Sequence record: NC_101838.1
DNA: 64,000 nt
Direction: 5' to 3' (one strand)
DNA from: a phage
Shown here: piece after piece, positions 17,467 to 62,670 of the stretch
Layout: each line of letters opens with the position of its first letter
Position numbering within the stretch: the stretch's first letter is position 1
The notes under the pieces: generated by a model
What the model was told of the DNA's origin: nothing
Database searches by the model: none
Seen by the model: only the letters and a program-made list of their open reading frames with translations
Translations under genes and position numbers: made by a program

Positions 17467-17527
17467 TATTGTGTCAAGTATTCCGATTGTGTCACCATTG
17501 TGTCTAAAGTGTCATATTGTGTCAGAC
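17467..17527. repeat. five tandem TTGTGTC(A) iterons
   Basis: tattgtgtcaag, gattgtgtcacc, cattgtgtctaa, agtgtcat, tattgtgtcagac at 12-17 bp spacing. Confidence 0.55.
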
Positions 17528-18099
17528 AAGTTTTTCTCCTCTTTGTCAAGTGCTGCATGAAAAATTTACAAACTGGTATGGTAGCATTTTTGCGGACCTG
17601 TTTACATTCAGGAGTGTATGTATAATCCTTGTTGTGTGGGCGTTTATACGTCTGGACGGTCAGAAGTCTGCAGGTTAATATCTAATCTATTGGCTGCTAA
17701 CTATATCCCACACAAATGATAAGAAATATAATTGTTATATGCGTAAACTGTAACTCATGTTATCAATCCCTGTATGGATCGCCAGTGGTGCGCATAATGG
17801 GTATTATGTTAAATTGCCCGTAATGATAAAGGTTCTCACAATGATAGGTATTCTCATTCACCCTCACAAAATAGATTGCAAATGTTGTGCCACTGTGTGA
17901 ACGGCCTCACCTATTAATTTGCCTCACTGCCTCGATATTTGAGAATTATTATAAGAATGAGAAGTATTCCCATTCCGTCCGCCTGGCAGCACTCCTGTAG
18001 GTCCTGCAAGGACTCTAGCTTTCAGCTAGACCCTTCGGGCCTCCCTGTAGGTCAGGTCAAAATCGGGGTAGAATTGGGCCTATTCAGATATTTCTGGCT

Positions 18100-18335
18100 G
18101 ACTCTTCAGGTCTGTGTGGGAAAAGCCAACCTCTCCGGCGGGGCAGGGGGATATCTGCGGGAAAATTGCAGGTCAATTAAAAAATTTACGTGGTATATGA
18201 AGCGCTCTTCAGGTAAGGCATGTATTATGGGATGAAACCCTCTTCAGGCAATGATATTTGTGGGTGTGATATTTGCTGGAAAGCCAGATATGACGGGACT
18301 CCCGGCGGGGCAGGGGTGGTACAGACAGGGAAAAT
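18100..18335. repeat. composite direct repeats (CTCTTCAGG ... CCGGCGGGGCAGGGG ... GGGAAAAT)
   Basis: Unit at 18100-18166 repeated at 18238-18335; extra CTCTTCAGG copies at about 18203 and 18654. Confidence 0.55.
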
Positions 18336-19014
18336 ATGAAGGATGTGGTTGGGTAGATTGATCAGACAGGTAGAGTATGGAATATGTTACAAGTATGTTA
18401 AATATGGAGGTTGAATATCTGTAGGATTTGTGTGTAAAATCAAAGACTTAAGTGGTGTTGTGGTATTTTCTATAAATAATTCAAGTTTAATAGGCAATAT
18501 TTGTCTCTATCCGCTTTGTGTGGTAAACAGATTCAGATTAGATTGGTTTACAAGTGTATACATAATATACAAATTAAAGATACAAGAAACCCCCCCTCCC
18601 CCCTTCGGCTACCATTCACCTTTTCCTCTGACTGGTACTTAAACACTTATTCAGACTCTTCAGGTTATCACCCATATATCATATGGCAGTGACTGGTGTC
18701 CTCCGGCCCCTCTTTCGTCACCCGTCCGCTTCGCCATGCTAATGCCATAGCTAATGGTTCGGTTGTTCACCCTGTTCACTCAGGTGTATCTCTATACCCC
18801 TTCAAACCGAAGAGAACAGAAAACCCGAATTACTCGGTAAAAGAAAAGAGAAGAACTTAATTTTATCAGGATAGGCAAGAATGTCAAGGTATGACTGCTC
18901 ACTAAACAAGCAAACAGTCATGTGTGGGAGGTAAGTGATTGTGGTGGTAGGAAATTTAGTTGAAAGATGTGTTATAGGTGCTTCCAGCACTTTAGCCGGG
19001 CAGCTAATTGTGTG

Positions 19015-56063: not shown

Positions 56064-56825
56064 TTAAAGTTCCATAAAGTTTTCTACAGTTTCAATAAAT
56101 GCTTTATCAGAGAAAGCGTCAACAGCACCGTTAAACCATACAGGGATCCCGCGATCCTCATATTGATAAAGGTCGCTACGTGAAATGCCACTTCCATCTG
56201 CACTCTGCGAGTCATACTTGTTTACAATCAGCAGTTTTGTGCCTTTACAAGTAGCAGGAAACAATTCCCAGTTAAAATTAATAACTGTGTTAGAACAACC
56301 TACTAGGATCACCATATCATTGCTTGTGAGAGATGTCAACAGGTCATACATGTCTGTATACTTAGGAGCAACCTCACCGAAGAACACTACATTGGGCTTA
56401 ACCCAGGTATACTTGCCTGTATCTACCTCCGTGTATCCGATATTTTTAATTACATCATTACCTTCAGCATCTTCGTAGGTGATTTCAGGCAAATACCCGT
56501 GGACATGTAAAATATCTTCATGTTTTACACCAGCACGCTCCAGCAAATCATCTACATTGGTGGTAAGGTTGATCACACGACCAGACCAGCGGGAATACCA
56601 CTCAGCGATCCGAAGATGTGCAAGGTTAGGATCAACACTGCCCAGAGCTACACGACGTGCATTGTAAAAGTCATGCACCTTATAGTAATTCTTGGCAAAG
56701 GTGTGGATGTTGCACACCTCATCGATGCTGAAATTCTCCCACATTGCAGTGCTACCAGATCGGAAAGTGGGAATACCAGATTCAGCGCTCAAACCAGCAC
56801 CGGAGATAATAATCAGTCGTCGCAT
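56064..56825 (-). CDS. Sir2-family (sirtuin-like) NAD-dependent enzyme lacking an obvious zinc ribbon
   Basis: ISGAGLSAESGIPTFRS (Rossmann/NAD motif), TTNVDDL, HVHG (catalytic His), VVFFGE, ILVGCSNTV; no CxxC...CxxC pairs seen. Confidence 0.8.
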   Translation of the reverse strand: MRRLIIISGAGLSAESGIPTFRSGSTAMWENFSIDEVCNIHTFAKNYYKVHDFYNARRVALGSVDPNLAHLRIAEWYSRWSGRVINLTTNVDDLLERAGVKHEDILHVHGYLPEITYEDAEGNDVIKNIGYTEVDTGKYTWVKPNVVFFGEVAPKYTDMYDLLTSLTSNDMVILVGCSNTVINFNWELFPATCKGTKLLIVNKYDSQSADGSGISRSDLYQYEDRGIPVWFNGAVDAFSDKAFIETVENFMEL

Positions 56826-56833
56826 AAGTGTCC

Positions 56834-57184
56834 TCAGTAGATGTTTTGTTTAATCTCTATTCCAAACTTCTTGAATGAGTCAGCAGCAAGCATAAATTTA
56901 CGAGCTGCCGATGGATTAGAAGTATGCACGAAAATAATCACGTTGTCAATAAGTGGTGGCTTTCCGAATACAAGTTTCTCCTCTAGCGCAGAGAAGCAGT
57001 CGTACCCTTCAAGCACTTCACCTAGATCATTGTCAAAATACCACTCAGATACGCGTCTGTAGAGCTTTCTCTTATCATTAAGAAAATCCATAAACTCAGA
57101 AGAATTCTTTAGCCACAGAGCGTCTGGGAGTCCATAATCTGACGGATCTCTAAAATCATCAAGCCACACAATCCACTTCTTCAT
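56834..57184 (-). CDS. hypothetical protein (116 aa)
   Basis: ORF between the RNA ligase and Sir2 genes; overlapping stop/start on both sides. Confidence 0.5.
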   Translation of the reverse strand: MKKWIVWLDDFRDPSDYGLPDALWLKNSSEFMDFLNDKRKLYRRVSEWYFDNDLGEVLEGYDCFSALEEKLVFGKPPLIDNVIIFVHTSNPSAARKFMLAADSFKKFGIEIKQNIY

Positions 57185-58116
57185 TGCATATAGTCCTCGT
57201 TGTGGAAATAGTAGTCCAGTATCTCACGACGCTCCTGCTCTAATAAGCAATTCCACACATCTTCTGTATAGTTGCTACGAATAAATTTTACCATACCGTA
57301 AAACTCTTCGTCAACACGTTTAAAGATATCATCATCCCAAATCTTCCAAGCTTTACCCCTCATTACTGCCTTCCGTGCCAGATAGTATGGAGACTTGATC
57401 TTCAGCTGCAGATCATAAGGGTAGTAAGGCTTACGAATCATATACCCTTCACCTCTTGTTTCTGCAGCTAATTCTTTTGCATAGCTGAACGGAATTTCAC
57501 GCACAGTGTTAGGACGTTTTGCACCAAGGTATTTGGCAATCCCATCTAAAGCTGCTTCTGGTAGCATTATTCCAGAATCATTATATCTGCAACCTATCAA
57601 ATATGCGCCATGGTCTTCTTGAACAATATGCGGATCTGAAGGGTGACAAATTTCAAACATGAATGTCATGTTTTCATTGCCCATAACCTTCTTGATAAGA
57701 TCTAAATTACCACATTGCTCTTGGATGGTTTCCTTTGCAAGGTTACAATATGGAGAATCAAGAGACCCGGTTGTTGAGAACAATAGGTCACCTTTATGAG
57801 ATGATACCACACCAAGGAATCCGTTCTTTTTCTCTACCGCAGTCACAAGCTTATTGTCAGGCAGGTTGGTGGAGTTTTCTCCCAAGTTAAACACTTTTGT
57901 GAAGGGCCATGCCACAACATTTCCTTCATTACCTACAACAATGCCTCGGCACTCCAGTAAACGAGGGGACAAATGCCATAAATTGTTGTAAAATACTTTT
58001 CTAGCATATTTATAGATCTTTAACCCGAGATCTGGGTAATACCTACTGGTTGCAAGACCTTTGTCAACTAGGTCGTCTGCATTAAAATACTTCATTATAT
58101 GTTCCTCATTTGTCAT
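57181..58116 (-). CDS. rnlA: RNA ligase, T4 Rnl1 (RnlA)-like
   Basis: LSPRLLECRGIVV and KVFNLGENSTNLP match recalled T4 Rnl1 segments (LPDALECRGIMF, KFFNLNENP); motif I VEKKNG (KxDG/NG) near residue 97, motif IV EGYMIRK, motif V KIKSP. Confidence 0.7.
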   Translation of the reverse strand: MTNEEHIMKYFNADDLVDKGLATSRYYPDLGLKIYKYARKVFYNNLWHLSPRLLECRGIVVGNEGNVVAWPFTKVFNLGENSTNLPDNKLVTAVEKKNGFLGVVSSHKGDLLFSTTGSLDSPYCNLAKETIQEQCGNLDLIKKVMGNENMTFMFEICHPSDPHIVQEDHGAYLIGCRYNDSGIMLPEAALDGIAKYLGAKRPNTVREIPFSYAKELAAETRGEGYMIRKPYYPYDLQLKIKSPYYLARKAVMRGKAWKIWDDDIFKRVDEEFYGMVKFIRSNYTEDVWNCLLEQERREILDYYFHNEDYMQ

Positions 58117-58159
58117 TTTGTCAGTCTATCCTGCCACACAAATAACTTAGTGTCAACAC

Positions 58160-58188
58160 TTGAAATTAACAAAACAGTTAGGTATACT
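58160..58188 (+). promoter_or_regulatory. sigma70-like promoter (TTGAAA-17-TATACT) in divergent intergenic region
   Basis: Hexamers upstream of the kinase gene; the minus-strand block starts 45 nt to the left. Confidence 0.5.
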
Positions 58189-58216
58189 ACCGTTGAAATT
58201 AAAACGGAGGGTCGCT

Positions 58217-58627
58217 ATGTCTAAAATGCTATATATCGTGCGTGGTCTACCAGGGTCTGGCAAATCAACACTGGCAAATGCGCTATCTTTAGAGGGTCTG
58301 TATCCACATTTTGAGAACGACATGTTCTGGTATGACGATGACGGCAATTACAACTGGGATGCAAGTAAAGTAACACTCGCAGCAAAATGGTGCAAAGATA
58401 ACGTAGAAGATATGATGCGTATGGGATACGACCGTATCGTGGTAAGTAATACGTTTACAAAAGAAAAACATGTGCAGGAATATGTTGACATGGCAATCAC
58501 TCATGGGTATAGTTATACCGTGATCGTGGTTGAAAACCGCCACGGTAATAAAAGCATTCATGATGTTCCAGACAAGGTTGTGGATCGTATGGAACGCCAG
58601 CTTAAAAACTGCATTAAACTTAAATGA
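58217..58627 (+). CDS. P-loop kinase, polynucleotide 5'-kinase-like
   Basis: Walker A LYIVRGLPGSGKSTLA resembles the T4 Pnk kinase N-terminus (GCPGSGKSTWA); ggagg SD; 136 aa. Confidence 0.6.
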   Translation: MSKMLYIVRGLPGSGKSTLANALSLEGLYPHFENDMFWYDDDGNYNWDASKVTLAAKWCKDNVEDMMRMGYDRIVVSNTFTKEKHVQEYVDMAITHGYSYTVIVVENRHGNKSIHDVPDKVVDRMERQLKNCIKLK

Positions 58628-58634
58628 GGAATGT

Positions 58635-59189
58635 ATGAAATACTTTGTAACAAGCGACACACACTTTCTCCACCAGCGGGTCATGGAGTTTGATTCATGT
58701 CAAAAACACAGATCTCAGTATGATCACAATCTTGACAGTATGAATGCGGGAATCATCACCAAGTGGAACTCTGTTGTGTCACCTGCAGACACTGTGTTCC
58801 ACTTGGGAGATATTGCATGCACTAATGATAAGAATATCAACAAATTGCTCCCAGATATTCTAAATATGTTGAACGGACATATTATTCTTGTTCGTGGCAA
58901 CCATGACACAAGGACGACTGTCAAAATTATGAAAGAGTTCGGTCATGAGGTTGTAGATTATTACGAGCTTCGCCACAACAAGAATTTGATCTGTATGAGC
59001 CATTACCAGTTTGCAAAGTGGAACAGAAAGCCTCACGGATCAGTCCAACTGTTCGGTCATGCTCACGGAACCACACAACAGTTGTTTGGCAGGCAGCTTG
59101 ATGTCGGTTGGGATGTGTGGGGGAGACTCTTACCATTAGAAGAGGCATACCGTATTGCAATGAGTTTTGATATTGACAGCAGGGAGTAA
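58635..59189 (+). CDS. calcineurin-like metallophosphoesterase
   Basis: Metallophosphatase motifs SDTHF, GDI, GNHD, GHAH in canonical order; starts 8 nt after the kinase stop. Confidence 0.7.
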   Translation: MKYFVTSDTHFLHQRVMEFDSCQKHRSQYDHNLDSMNAGIITKWNSVVSPADTVFHLGDIACTNDKNINKLLPDILNMLNGHIILVRGNHDTRTTVKIMKEFGHEVVDYYELRHNKNLICMSHYQFAKWNRKPHGSVQLFGHAHGTTQQLFGRQLDVGWDVWGRLLPLEEAYRIAMSFDIDSRE

Positions 59190-59236
59190 TCCCTGCTATT
59201 TTAAAGAAAATTGCCACACAAGGAGAATCAGGAGAT

Positions 59237-59587
59237 ATGAAAGATGGGGATAAGCTGCTATATCTTAAAGTCCCCCTTGAAATACTATCTATGTCAAAAG
59301 TTTTGAATGACACAACTGGGGAGGTTGTTGTTCTTGACTTGTATGACAAGATCGTATACTGCTACCTGCACAACTGGTATAAGCTTGGAGGAAATTCACG
59401 CTTCACACCAAGCACAAGGAAAATTGCAGCAGATGTTGGGATAAAGAAAACAAAAGCAGCAGCGTGCGTTAAAACTTTAGAATGTGCAGGAGTGGTTGAA
59501 ACATCCACACAAGGGAGAGGTAAAAGATGCACATTTTCCAAAGTTTTGCCACCAGAAGAAGTTATTCGGATGTCAACAACTGGTTAG
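59237..59587 (+). CDS. putative winged-helix DNA-binding protein (116 aa)
   Basis: STRKIAADVGIKKTKAAACVKTLECAGVV has helix-turn-helix character; followed by an iteron array. Confidence 0.45.
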   Translation: MKDGDKLLYLKVPLEILSMSKVLNDTTGEVVVLDLYDKIVYCYLHNWYKLGGNSRFTPSTRKIAADVGIKKTKAAACVKTLECAGVVETSTQGRGKRCTFSKVLPPEEVIRMSTTG

Positions 59588-59661
59588 ACCAGTAAAAACT
59601 TAAATATCTGTACTATAAGGATTCGTATGTTTTATGTTCGCCATGGAACGGATACTATTAA

Positions 59662-59725
59662 CTGTCCGTGATACGGACACATCTGCCCGTAATACGGACA
59701 CTAACTGTCCGTGATACGGACACAT
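59662..59725. repeat. three tandem palindromic iterons (GTCCGTnnnACGGAC core), about 21-bp period
   Basis: ctgtccgtgatacggacaca, ctgcccgtaatacggacac, ctgtccgtgatacggacacat; followed by an AT-rich tract and further palindromes to about 59850. Confidence 0.65.
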
Positions 59726-59879
59726 AAAGAATATAACTAAAATAACTAAATAATAAAAAATAAAAGATCTAGTACTTATGGTACTAAGTACATATACTTA
59801 ACTTATGTAGAATATACTAGATCCTAAGTACCATGTTTTAAATTTATTACTTACTATGGGCAGTGTCGGCCCTTCATTG

Positions 59880-60160
59880 GCACTCGCCTACGAGGGGCGA
59901 GATGCCGGGCCTCCTTGGTGCACACAATAACAGAAGTTCATACATGCAGGTCTGTTAACATGTGTGGGAGCGAAGCGATAGCGCAGGCCAAAGGCCGAGC
60001 ACTGATGTGGACCACCGACGAAAGCTTGCCAGCGCCGTAAGGAGTCGGTTGAGAGTCTCCCGCGCGAGCTTGGATGAAGTTTATGTGTGGAAACTGACAA
60101 GAAGGCCCCTAAATCGCTCCACAGCTATATAAACTATACCAGGTAATGCAATCGCACCAG
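59880..60160 (+). ncRNA. candidate structured RNA / GC-rich ORF-free island
   Basis: About 280 nt, conspicuously GC-rich and stem-forming, with no credible ORF; strand not established. Confidence 0.2.
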
Positions 60161-60226
60161 TTTGATAGAAAAGCTCGTTACAAAGCGATACAGTGAGTTT
60201 TTCTATAACTTGAAGAGGAGGCAGCT

Positions 60227-60805
60227 ATGGGTTCACGCAAAGATGACCGTGAAAAGATTGCAAAACGTTATCAGAATGAAGAACAGATGGAGAAAACTTT
60301 CAAGTGGAAGCCCGGTTTCCAGCGTAATCATTCTAACGCTCGTGATCGTAAGCATCCGGATAAGTGGCTAACACCGCCAAATGATGGCATGCAGGTTGGG
60401 GATGAGAAGGAGATGTCGCCTGGAAAAGATGGCAACTACATTCGCACTAAGGACGCTGGTCCAAAGGATGACAGCTATCTTGTAGATAAGGTTCTTGATG
60501 GTATCAATGTAGATGTTGACACTGCACGAAACCTTTTTCTTGGGTGGTATCGCACAGGTTTTTTCGACATCAAGGCTATTCGTCGTGTTTGTGATATTAA
60601 AAAGTCTGCATATGATGACGACTCGTTACATCGCACCCTGAGACAATATTCAGAAAGATATGGTCATCCGGTTATCACTCTTGACGATGTTAACGAAGTG
60701 ATGTATCATGCAGAGGTTGTTGCAGGAAGATTTGGTGATGCATATCTTGATATCCTTTCTGCAAAGGATGAGGTAATGTTAAATAAGATTTACTATGAAC
60801 GCTGA
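60227..60805 (+). CDS. hypothetical protein (192 aa)
   Basis: ORF with gaagaggagg SD 7 nt upstream. Confidence 0.55.
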   Translation: MGSRKDDREKIAKRYQNEEQMEKTFKWKPGFQRNHSNARDRKHPDKWLTPPNDGMQVGDEKEMSPGKDGNYIRTKDAGPKDDSYLVDKVLDGINVDVDTARNLFLGWYRTGFFDIKAIRRVCDIKKSAYDDDSLHRTLRQYSERYGHPVITLDDVNEVMYHAEVVAGRFGDAYLDILSAKDEVMLNKIYYER

Positions 60806-61323: not shown

Positions 61324-61379
61324 GGTTGTTTTCGTGTATCATGATGAATATCCAATTTAAAGATGAATTTGATGGCTTT

Positions 61380-61610
61380 ATCTCCGGATGCTTTGAAACA
61401 GGGTTCGGAGAAGGCTGAGTTCCCCTTAGAGGGCTTGATAGTGCACCACACTTAAAATGGTAGGGGCAGCCAGCACATGACGATGTGACCCCAGCCAACC
61501 TGTAATAAGGTCGAGCCAAAGTGCGGTAATGGGCTCTGGTAACCCACTTGTTGGGTCTTGCTGGTCCAGGACGCTGGACAAGTCGCAGGGAATACCACCC
61601 TGCGGCGAAC
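61380..61610 (+). ncRNA. candidate structured RNA / second GC-rich ORF-free island
   Basis: About 230 nt GC-rich segment where only overlapping minus-strand pseudo-ORFs appear; strand not established. Confidence 0.2.
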
Positions 61611-61639
61611 TTGACAATCAGTATTTGCTATGATAAAAT
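61611..61639 (+). promoter_or_regulatory. sigma70-like promoter (TTGACA-17-TAAAAT)
   Basis: Hexamers upstream of the ORF at 61668. Confidence 0.5.
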
Positions 61640-61667
61640 CCACCTATCACGTGATAATGGAGGAAAC

Positions 61668-62006
61668 ATGGCGGATACAACTAAAAAGCGTCGCCGTAGA
61701 GGCAGACCTCTGAAAGAGGAGTCCAACGCCATTCAGCTAGAGAAGAACATCCTTGATATGAAGGAATCTTTTATAGCGATGGTTCCAGAAGCTCACAAAG
61801 TTTTAAGAGAGCTGATGTTGGACCCGAAAACCAAACAAAATATTCGTCAAAGCATTGCAGAGTATGTTCTTGATAAGGCAGACCGAATGCAGGAAGAATA
61901 TGATGAGATGTTTGGTGAAGAGGAAGAGGTGGTAGTAGAAGAGGCTGAAAAACCAGCACCTTTTATGCCATTCACCACAGAAATACAGCCTGTTGGCAAT
62001 AGTTAA
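61668..62006 (+). CDS. hypothetical protein with basic AT-hook-like N-terminus (112 aa)
   Basis: Internal ATG with aatggaggaaac SD; KKRRRRGRPLKEE N-terminus, acidic C-terminus. Confidence 0.5.
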   Translation: MADTTKKRRRRGRPLKEESNAIQLEKNILDMKESFIAMVPEAHKVLRELMLDPKTKQNIRQSIAEYVLDKADRMQEEYDEMFGEEEEVVVEEAEKPAPFMPFTTEIQPVGNS

Positions 62007-62571: not shown

Positions 62572-62670
62572 GCTAGGTAAGCCCTTTGGCAAGGGCGAGG
62601 ATTTTTAATCCTGAAAATAGACGAGGTAGTCGTTGAATACATAGGTGGTTCGATTCCATCACCTAGCACC
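62572..62670 (+). ncRNA. aberrant tRNA-like element (about 97 nt) lacking a canonical anticodon arm
   Basis: Good acceptor (gctaggt/acctagc), D-arm and T-arm (ggtgg-ttcgatt-ccatc), but the region between holds two 5-bp/5-nt-loop hairpins instead of a 7-nt anticodon loop. Confidence 0.35.

Follow-up and report, generated by a model that had tools for sequence, protein, structure and literature searches.

The rV5-like phages are among the most often isolated phages of E. coli, and their replication origin is still undefined. No published origin for rV5, PVP-SE1 or the Vequintavirinae was found in the literature, beyond an inconclusive skew analysis in the rV5 genome paper. The locus considered here raises the question of whether it might be that origin. 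It is situated in a 64,000-nt stretch of phage DNA (NC_101838.1), which was analysed as a whole and is referred to as the window. An earlier sequence-only reading had described a small gene followed by palindromic repeats and an AT-rich stretch, and had proposed either an initiator-plus-iteron origin or an autoregulated operator array. The present analysis supports that proposal and, on indirect computed evidence, favours the first of its two forms, for four reasons: the gene product is a homologue of the iteron-binding domain of a proven initiator (PLE RepA, 4RO3); the half-sites are under selection in an array that is unique in the genome; the flanking AT-rich tract is the genome-wide minimum of duplex stability; and the module recurs in other genera with different palindromes, in phage SSE-121 at the skew minimum. 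The locus is therefore most likely (a probability of roughly two in three) a theta-type, iteron-type replication origin of the rV5-like phages, whose minimal initiator would consist of a RepA_N-type N-terminal domain only.

Location and organization of the locus

The window derives from the genome of a Vequintavirus (an rV5-like E. coli myovirus). The 1.4 kb around the locus matched 118 phage records at 90-99.8% identity, all of them from Vequintavirus, with phage nomo the nearest. No relatives were found in an IMG/VR scan, and a metagenome scan returned four close relatives only. A Sir2-like gene and an RNA ligase 1 gene are situated on the minus strand; on the plus strand, genes for an AAA_33 kinase, a metallophosphoesterase and a 116-aa protein are followed by a 640-bp intergenic region, beyond which lie small ORFs, seven tRNAs, spanin, terminase and late genes. 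The replisome genes of the phage encode a PIF1-like SF1B helicase, a DnaB_C-type primase-helicase and a family-A polymerase. The features of the locus are listed in Table 1.

Table 1. Positions of the features of the locus, numbered as in the window
Feature	Position	Strand	Remarks
Sigma-70-like promoter of the 116-aa gene	59173-59202	+	TTGACA, 18-nt spacer, TATTTT, with TG
116-aa winged-helix gene	59237-59587	+	ORF with Shine-Dalgarno sequence
Hypervariable spacer, ~20 bp	59640-59660		Directly upstream of first repeat
Iteron A, TGTCCGTGATACGGACA	59663-59679		Ancestral copies 1 and 2 fused by 21-bp deletion
Iteron B, TGCCCGTAATACGGACA	59684-59700		Ancestral copy 3; one arm mismatch
Iteron C, TGTCCGTGATACGGACA	59706-59722		Ancestral copy 4; adjoins AT tract
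AT-rich tract, proposed DNA-unwinding element	59723-59769		Two tandem ATAACTAAA units
Nearly invariant block	59766-59835		Two GATC sites, interleaved inverted repeats, TAAGTAC half-site cluster
Inverted repeat A	59766-59774 and 59815-59823		GATCTAGTA with TACTAGATC
Inverted repeat B	59778-59788 and 59824-59834		ATGGTACTAAG with CTAAGTACCAT
GC-rich non-coding block	59861-60130		Borders AT tract; includes the genome's most GC-rich 200 bp (0.59)

The palindromic repeats

The repeat unit is a 17-bp palindrome, TGTCCG-N5-CGGACA, the first copy of which begins 75 bp past the stop codon of the 116-aa gene. Three 21-bp-spaced palindromes had been noted previously. The three copies were confirmed, at spacings of 21 and 22 bp, but the half-site given for them, GTCCGT-N3-ACGGAC, was wrong, since the half-site is of 6 bp and the 5-bp centre is variable. 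Tandem Repeats Finder reported a period of 21, 3.0 copies and a score of 102, making this the top array of the 64-kb window. With up to two mismatches, GTCCGTNNNACGGAC had four matches in 64 kb against 0.86 expected, and three of these fell within 58 bp. It is apparent that the array is far beyond chance. In the complete genome of nomo, the locus of which is 99.8% identical, a GTCCG-N5-CGGAC array was present at this locus only, with one isolated site elsewhere when up to one mismatch was allowed.

Conservation was assessed with an alignment of 17 relatives, the sequences of which came from phage records, Logan assemblies and metagenomes. Four copies made up the ancestral array, with starts at +0, +21, +42 and +64, and most relatives retain all four. 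Among the aligned sequences the three-copy form was found in the window, nomo and one metagenome contig; the short form was also present in 8 of the 30 best-matching records (of 118). The 21-bp deletion occurred at least twice, because the window keeps the centre of copy 1 while nomo and the metagenome contig keep that of copy 2. In every three-copy form the two copies proximal to the AT tract are kept. In lambda, two proximal iterons and the AT tract suffice (PMC7466680).

The 6-bp arms are essentially invariant, the exception being T/C at position 3 of a left arm, with no compensation in the right arm; iteron B has a left-arm change of this kind, from T to C, which is found in most relatives. 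The 5-bp centres vary between relatives. The mean pairwise difference was 0.024 in the array, compared with 0.12-0.15 at third codon positions of the flanking genes, and the half-sites show selection. The uncompensated arm change speaks for a protein-binding site rather than a hairpin. A distance of 11 bp separates the half-site centres, and successive sites are two helical turns apart, so that the repeats lie on one DNA face, a geometry suited to dimers bound there.

A different explanation for the palindromes is that they form RNA or single-stranded DNA hairpins in the 3' UTR of the gene, where they would stabilise the transcript, mark it for processing or terminate it. A transcript of 59650-59735 does fold at -28.7 kcal/mol (z=-5.6 versus shuffles), and conserved arms with variable centres would also fit stems and loops. 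An arm sequence identical in all copies is needless for a hairpin, however, and neither of the two independent T-to-C changes in the arms is compensated. The copies are spaced at strictly 21-22 bp, and there is neither a U-tract nor a terminator call. Furthermore, in SSE-121 and in the Mydovirus/GAP31/Henunavirus group (with Iguana_ER37 as representative) the repeats are upstream of the gene start, and hence outside a 3' UTR. Such hairpins are considered a very improbable explanation of the array.

The hypervariable spacer differs in almost every lineage, though its surroundings are conserved. It may represent a fifth repeat in decay, or a hotspot arising from repeat gain and loss.

The AT-rich tract and the adjoining blocks

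The AT-rich stretch with ataactaaa repeats that had been pointed out earlier is present, with an A+T content of 88% over 50 bp from 59724. Nearest-neighbour energies were calculated in 40-, 60-, 100- and 150-bp windows, and the least stable duplex of the 137.7-kb genome was located at 59724-59860, i.e. at the AT tract. The tract ends in GATCTTTTATTTT (59757-59769, minus strand), the sole exact match in 64 kb to GATCTnTTnTTTT, which is the oriC 13-mer consensus in published papers. No DnaA boxes (TTWTNCACA) were found at the locus, and none matched from 51330 to the end of the window.

Four of the 12 TWAGTAC sites of the window fall in 59772-59831, within the nearly invariant block. The AGTAC-containing palindromes claimed for this region are real to the extent that GTAC-containing inverted repeats occur at 59766-59834; these are interleaved (A B ... 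A' B'), so that formation of a single hairpin is impossible. The block is a candidate site for an auxiliary factor, or a candidate unconventional promoter.

On its far side, the GC-rich block may limit or direct unwinding. The predicted folding of 59855-60135 on the two strands was not significant for a structured RNA (z values of -1.6 and -1.4), and Rfam searches of the whole window at the gathering threshold, and of the locus at E values up to 10, returned tRNAs and chance matches only. The block was also considered as a coding region, ORF78 of rV5, and rejected: its substitutions show no codon periodicity, and the annotated ORF is therefore unsupported. One relative has an 18-nt deletion at 59927-59944 in this block. 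BLAST comparison with the whole genome revealed no second copy of the AT-rich or the GC-rich block. Neither a sigma-70-like promoter, on either strand, nor an intrinsic terminator was predicted in 59588-60226, the promoter scan being of the sigma-70 type only. A small hairpin at 60126-60140, upstream of the ORF at 60227, has pairing that is apparently kept by linked changes in relatives (CTATATAAACTATAC versus CTGTGTGAACTACAC); it may be a 5'-UTR element.

The 116-aa protein

A small gene for a putative winged-helix DNA-binding protein had been predicted upstream of the repeats, and this prediction was borne out by the ORF and by its structural model. The promoter of the gene corresponds to promoter P76 in the annotation of the rV5 record. 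Between its -35 and -10 elements, at 59178-59196, lies a hairpin, GCAGGGA-GTAA-TCCCTGC, with a 7-bp stem, followed by TATTTT. The loop of the hairpin holds the stop codon of the phosphoesterase gene, and the element may be an overlapping terminator and promoter.

In Pfam, HTH_36 and DUF6945 matched the protein, both slightly below their cut-offs, and there was no match to RepA_N (PF06970) or Phage_rep_O at E values up to 0.1. PHROGs assigned it to phrog_12838, 'replication initiation protein'. The GenBank label of the gene is mostly 'putative transcriptional regulator'; 'replication initiation protein' or 'repeat_region' labels already exist in some GenBank records, from automated annotation.

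A phmmer search of the PDB matched the protein to 4RO3, with an E value of 3e-6 for the single sequence and 5e-12 with the family profile. This structure is the N-terminal domain of RepA from the Vibrio cholerae PLE (PMC7145576). PLE RepA binds the PLE iterons in gel-shift assays, and in ICP1-infected cells RepA and the non-coding region of the PLE suffice for replication (PMC7145576; also PMC8263062). The 116-aa protein was modelled with AlphaFold using a 37-sequence alignment, which gave a pLDDT of 80 and a pTM of 0.78 (five near-identical sequences had given a pLDDT of 45). The modelled fold, an N-terminal beta pair, three helices and a beta wing, is the winged-helix fold of RepA_N and DnaD N-terminal domains. 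The protein stops approximately 15 residues past the wing and is without a C-terminal domain. These results suggest that it is a stand-alone homologue of the RepA_N-type N-terminal DNA-binding domain, and it is proposed here as a putative origin-binding initiator.

The family is narrow. A single-sequence HMMER search gave eight matches among 1.8 billion representatives, three of which are true distant homologues; three others were rejected as spurious, low-complexity matches. A profile search yielded 42 stand-alone members of 81-217 aa, with no extra enzymatic domain. No clear iteron array was seen beside the members of the 182-217-aa clade, the contigs of which are short or uninformative. The distant homologues of 194-217 aa are extended at the C terminus by an acidic stretch that finishes in ...D(E)APF and is similar to the tail of SSB proteins at that end. 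If that likeness is real, the tail could be a replisome-recruitment motif without a counterpart in the 116-aa protein.

Counterpart modules in other genera

Diverged homologues were found in three more lineages of the Vequintavirinae, beside different palindromes and the same AT/GATC core. The Mydovirus/GAP31/Henunavirus group, which includes Klebsiella phage Iguana_ER37, Cronobacter phage GAP31 and Erwinia phage pEp_SNUABM_01, has a 105-aa homologue at a divergent junction (33% identity over 48 aa; PHROG 8102, 'replication initiation protein', 7e-36). Beside it are two TCAAWWTGAGCAYAGGCT repeats 25 bp apart, an AT tract with GATC 13-mer-like elements, and a GC hairpin. The 'O-like' PHROGs were matched weakly, and by the Klebsiella-phage homologue alone.

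Salmonella phage SSE-121 encodes an unannotated 120-aa homologue (phrog_8453) that falls within the profile family. It adjoins ATTCCCAATCGGGAAT and ATTCCCAAAAAGGAAT, 24 bp apart, which are ATTCCC-N4-GGGAAT palindromes, and an AT tract with five GATC sites. That AT tract (139,022-139,123) is the genome-wide stability minimum of SSE-121 at all four window sizes, and the cumulative GC-skew minimum, at 139,008, is at the same spot. Both in SSE-121 and in the Mydovirus/GAP31/Henunavirus group, the repeats are directly upstream of the start codon of the homologue. The AT/GATC core (AAAGATCTT...TTTTATT) aligns in all five of five lineages, and the palindromes differ by protein clade. A common core with clade-specific palindromes is the pattern expected of cognate initiator-iteron pairs joined to a shared unwinding element. 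At the syntenic junction of the phi92-like phage VEcB, no recognisable homologue or module was found.

SSE-121 gp228 (positions 1213-1773 of piece L013), a protein of 186 aa, is encoded next to the SSE-121 module. Its N-terminal winged helix has weak matches to PHROGs annotated as 'replication initiation protein', and an endonuclease PHROG is matched by its C-terminal part (phrog_681, 3.6e-18). In this it is reminiscent of Odn, the origin-directed nuclease of ICP1, in which a RepA-like domain is fused to a nuclease.

The comparative data bear on the main rival to the origin interpretation, in which the protein functions purely as a transcription factor, has the palindromes for its operators and plays no part in replication. 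As such it could either block or attenuate transcripts that read through towards the downstream genes and the tRNA cluster, or activate an unconventional promoter within the conserved block at 59766-59835. The prevailing GenBank label agrees with a regulator, as does a conserved TAGAAT -10-like element, lacking a -35, downstream of the repeats. The position of the repeats at the start of the homologue in other genera makes autoregulation plausible there, so that autoregulation may coexist with an origin role; Rep proteins often do both, and a regulatory function is thus compatible with an origin. In the window, on the other hand, the array is downstream of its own gene, approximately 460 bp from the promoter of that gene, and no sigma-70-like promoter in the intergenic region overlaps the repeats. 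Moreover, the best match in both sequence and structure is a proven initiator domain, and regulation would leave unexplained the genome-wide melting minimum in two genera and the AT/GATC core shared across genera. A purely regulatory role, which would be an ordinary finding, is accordingly judged unlikely.

It was also considered that the locus might be the packaging (pac) site and the small protein a recognition factor resembling a terminase small subunit. The genome is circularly permuted, so that a pac site should exist; the gene for the terminase large subunit is approximately 4 kb downstream of the locus, and GATC-containing repeats are known at the pac site of phage P1. No terminase small-subunit match was obtained in Pfam or PHROGs, however, and the small gene is not adjacent to the large-subunit gene, which in SSE-121 is approximately 15 kb away. 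In view also of the homology of the protein to an initiator domain, the pac interpretation is given only a slight chance.

GC skew and a second non-coding region

In nomo, cumulative GC skew reaches its global minimum at 93,231 (~58,175 in the window), at a divergent transcription junction 1.5 kb upstream of the repeats. The same switch was seen in the rV5 genome paper, where it tracks the direction of transcription; an origin was sought there by skew, and none was defined. Because the skew follows the direction of transcription, and because its arms are very unequal (about 38 and 99 kb), this evidence is confounded. The skew is consistent with an origin at the locus, subject to that confounding.

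A large non-coding region at ~16470-18980 (the 'non-coding' box of the rV5 paper) is AT-rich and holds the cumulative GC-skew maximum of the genome. It also contains the second least stable duplex segment, at ~17014-17110, as well as many direct and inverted repeats, among them ATAGTTGCC, which is found at 17155-17346 in both orientations, and a perfect inverted repeat of 18 nt at 17204/17338. A terminus, a second origin or a packaging function might reside here. It is known that large virulent phages may replicate from more than one origin, or in a recombination-dependent manner. This, and the existence of the second AT-rich, repeat-rich non-coding region at ~16.5-19 kb, were counted against the origin interpretation of the locus described here.

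Comparison with characterised origins

The closest parallel is with the PLE. In both cases semi-palindromic iterons are situated in a non-coding region beside the gene, initiator and iteron sequences vary together between lineages, and a T7-type polymerase, a primase-helicase and an SF1B helicase are found alongside; PLE RepA uses an ICP1 replisome of this kind and needs the SF1B helicase. The PLE has three iterons of ~30 bp, as opposed to three or four 17-bp palindromes at 21-bp spacing here. It is, of course, a satellite that borrows the replisome of a helper phage, while the present locus is a candidate belonging to the virulent phage itself. PLE RepA, unlike the 116-aa protein, has a C-terminal domain in addition to the N-terminal one. 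In RepA_N proteins the C-terminal domain is thought to serve host- or replisome-specific functions (PMC7145576).

The staphylococcal RepA_N initiators (pSK41, pTZ2162; PDB 4PQL, 4PT7, 4PTA and 5KBJ) belong to Gram-positive plasmids and carry a C-terminal domain; they gave no significant sequence match (E about 0.8). PLE RepA itself has no evident BLASTP similarity to staphylococcal RepA_N proteins and was placed in the family by structure (PMC7145576). With respect to RepA_N-type initiators in general, the 116-aa protein thus has the N-terminal fold, homology to a characterised member and semi-palindromic repeats beside its gene, and lacks the Pfam RepA_N match and the C-terminal domain.

Like ori-lambda, the locus has inverted-repeat iterons abutting an AT-rich tract. 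Ori-lambda contains four imperfect inverted-repeat iterons of ~18-19 bp with short spacers and an AT tract of ~40 bp; there are four iterons in lambda and six in Stx phages, and transcription passes the lambda origin (PMC3349717, PMC7466680). The number of iterons differs among relatives in the present case as well. The lambda origin is within the O gene, whereas the array described here is intergenic; and the C-terminal domain of O recruits P-DnaB, whereas no such domain or loader is evident here, nor was there a match to Phage_rep_O. A possible resemblance to the unwinding element of E. coli oriC consists of one exact GATCTnTTnTTTT 13-mer at the edge of the AT tract, and of GATC sites conserved across genera. 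The locus differs from oriC in having one 13-mer, where oriC has three, and in the absence of nearby DnaA boxes. It would be speculative to assign a part to DnaA, SeqA or Dam, or a role to Dam methylation.

Iterons combined with an AT tract and a winged-helix Rep protein make up the canonical architecture; the distinguishing feature of this locus is its N-terminal-domain-only candidate initiator.

A possible course of initiation

If the locus is an origin, initiation might proceed as follows. The 116-aa protein would be expressed early, from the host-type promoter, and its dimers would bind the three (ancestrally four) phased palindromes on one face of the DNA. The nucleoprotein complex would strain and open the AT tract, which carries the oriC-like 13-mer with a GATC site, and the opened strand would then admit the T7-type primase-helicase and the family-A polymerase of the phage, perhaps aided by the PIF1-like SF1B helicase. 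Because neither a promoter nor a terminator is predicted ahead of the next ORF (60227), early transcripts would be expected to run on through the repeats and the AT tract, and such read-through would recall the transcriptional activation of the lambda origin.

Since the protein represents only the DNA-binding half of a RepA_N-type initiator, entry of the replisome would rely on DNA remodelling or on other phage factors, in place of a recruitment domain. The absent C-terminal domain is the main mechanistic gap and counts against the origin interpretation; the lack of a Pfam RepA_N or Phage_rep_O match, the lack of a DnaA box and the confounded skew were likewise counted against it.

A broader hypothesis joins these observations, and is put forward tentatively, as possible though somewhat less than probable. 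According to this hypothesis, the 116-aa domain, without a recruitment domain, would be the sole origin-specific initiator of a 137-kb virulent myovirus; Vequintavirinae origins would be modular, with a conserved AT/GATC core and an exchangeable initiator-palindrome cassette, with three or more swaps between genera; and the Vibrio PLE initiator would descend from a phage origin binder of this type. Variation in iteron copy number and the hypervariable flank could then represent escape from origin-directed nucleases.

Should the origin interpretation be correct, a concrete origin of ~200 bp and a 116-aa candidate initiator would offer a handle for marker-frequency and replication studies, and a basis for phage-dependent replicon engineering or genome rebooting. 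The locus would also provide a minimal system in which to ask how a RepA_N-type domain opens DNA without a recruitment domain, a question that applies equally to PLE RepA, and the initiator of a satellite would be linked to a family of phage-encoded proteins.

Other observations in the vicinity of the locus

The locus is embedded in an apparent RNA-repair and NAD-related set of genes (56064-59189: Sir2-like, T4 Rnl1-type RNA ligase, AAA_33 polynucleotide-kinase-like and metallophosphoesterase) just upstream of the tRNA cluster. The same genes are found beside the homologous module in other genera and in one distant metagenomic relative.

In 18 records (MG0656xx) labelled 'Campylobacter phage' (C11, C12, A141 and others), the locus is 98-100% identical to that of E. 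coli rV5-like phages, and the host labels of these records look doubtful.

A second GC-rich (0.52-0.55), seemingly non-coding stretch at 61324-61667 lies upstream of the ORF at 61668-62006 and is dissimilar to the first GC-rich block. The seven-tRNA cluster includes, at 62572-62670, an unusually long (97-99 nt) tRNA-like gene, to which ARAGORN assigned a four-base anticodon (atcc); its Rfam match is weak (35.5 bits), and in other records it is annotated as tRNA-Lys or 'OTHER'.
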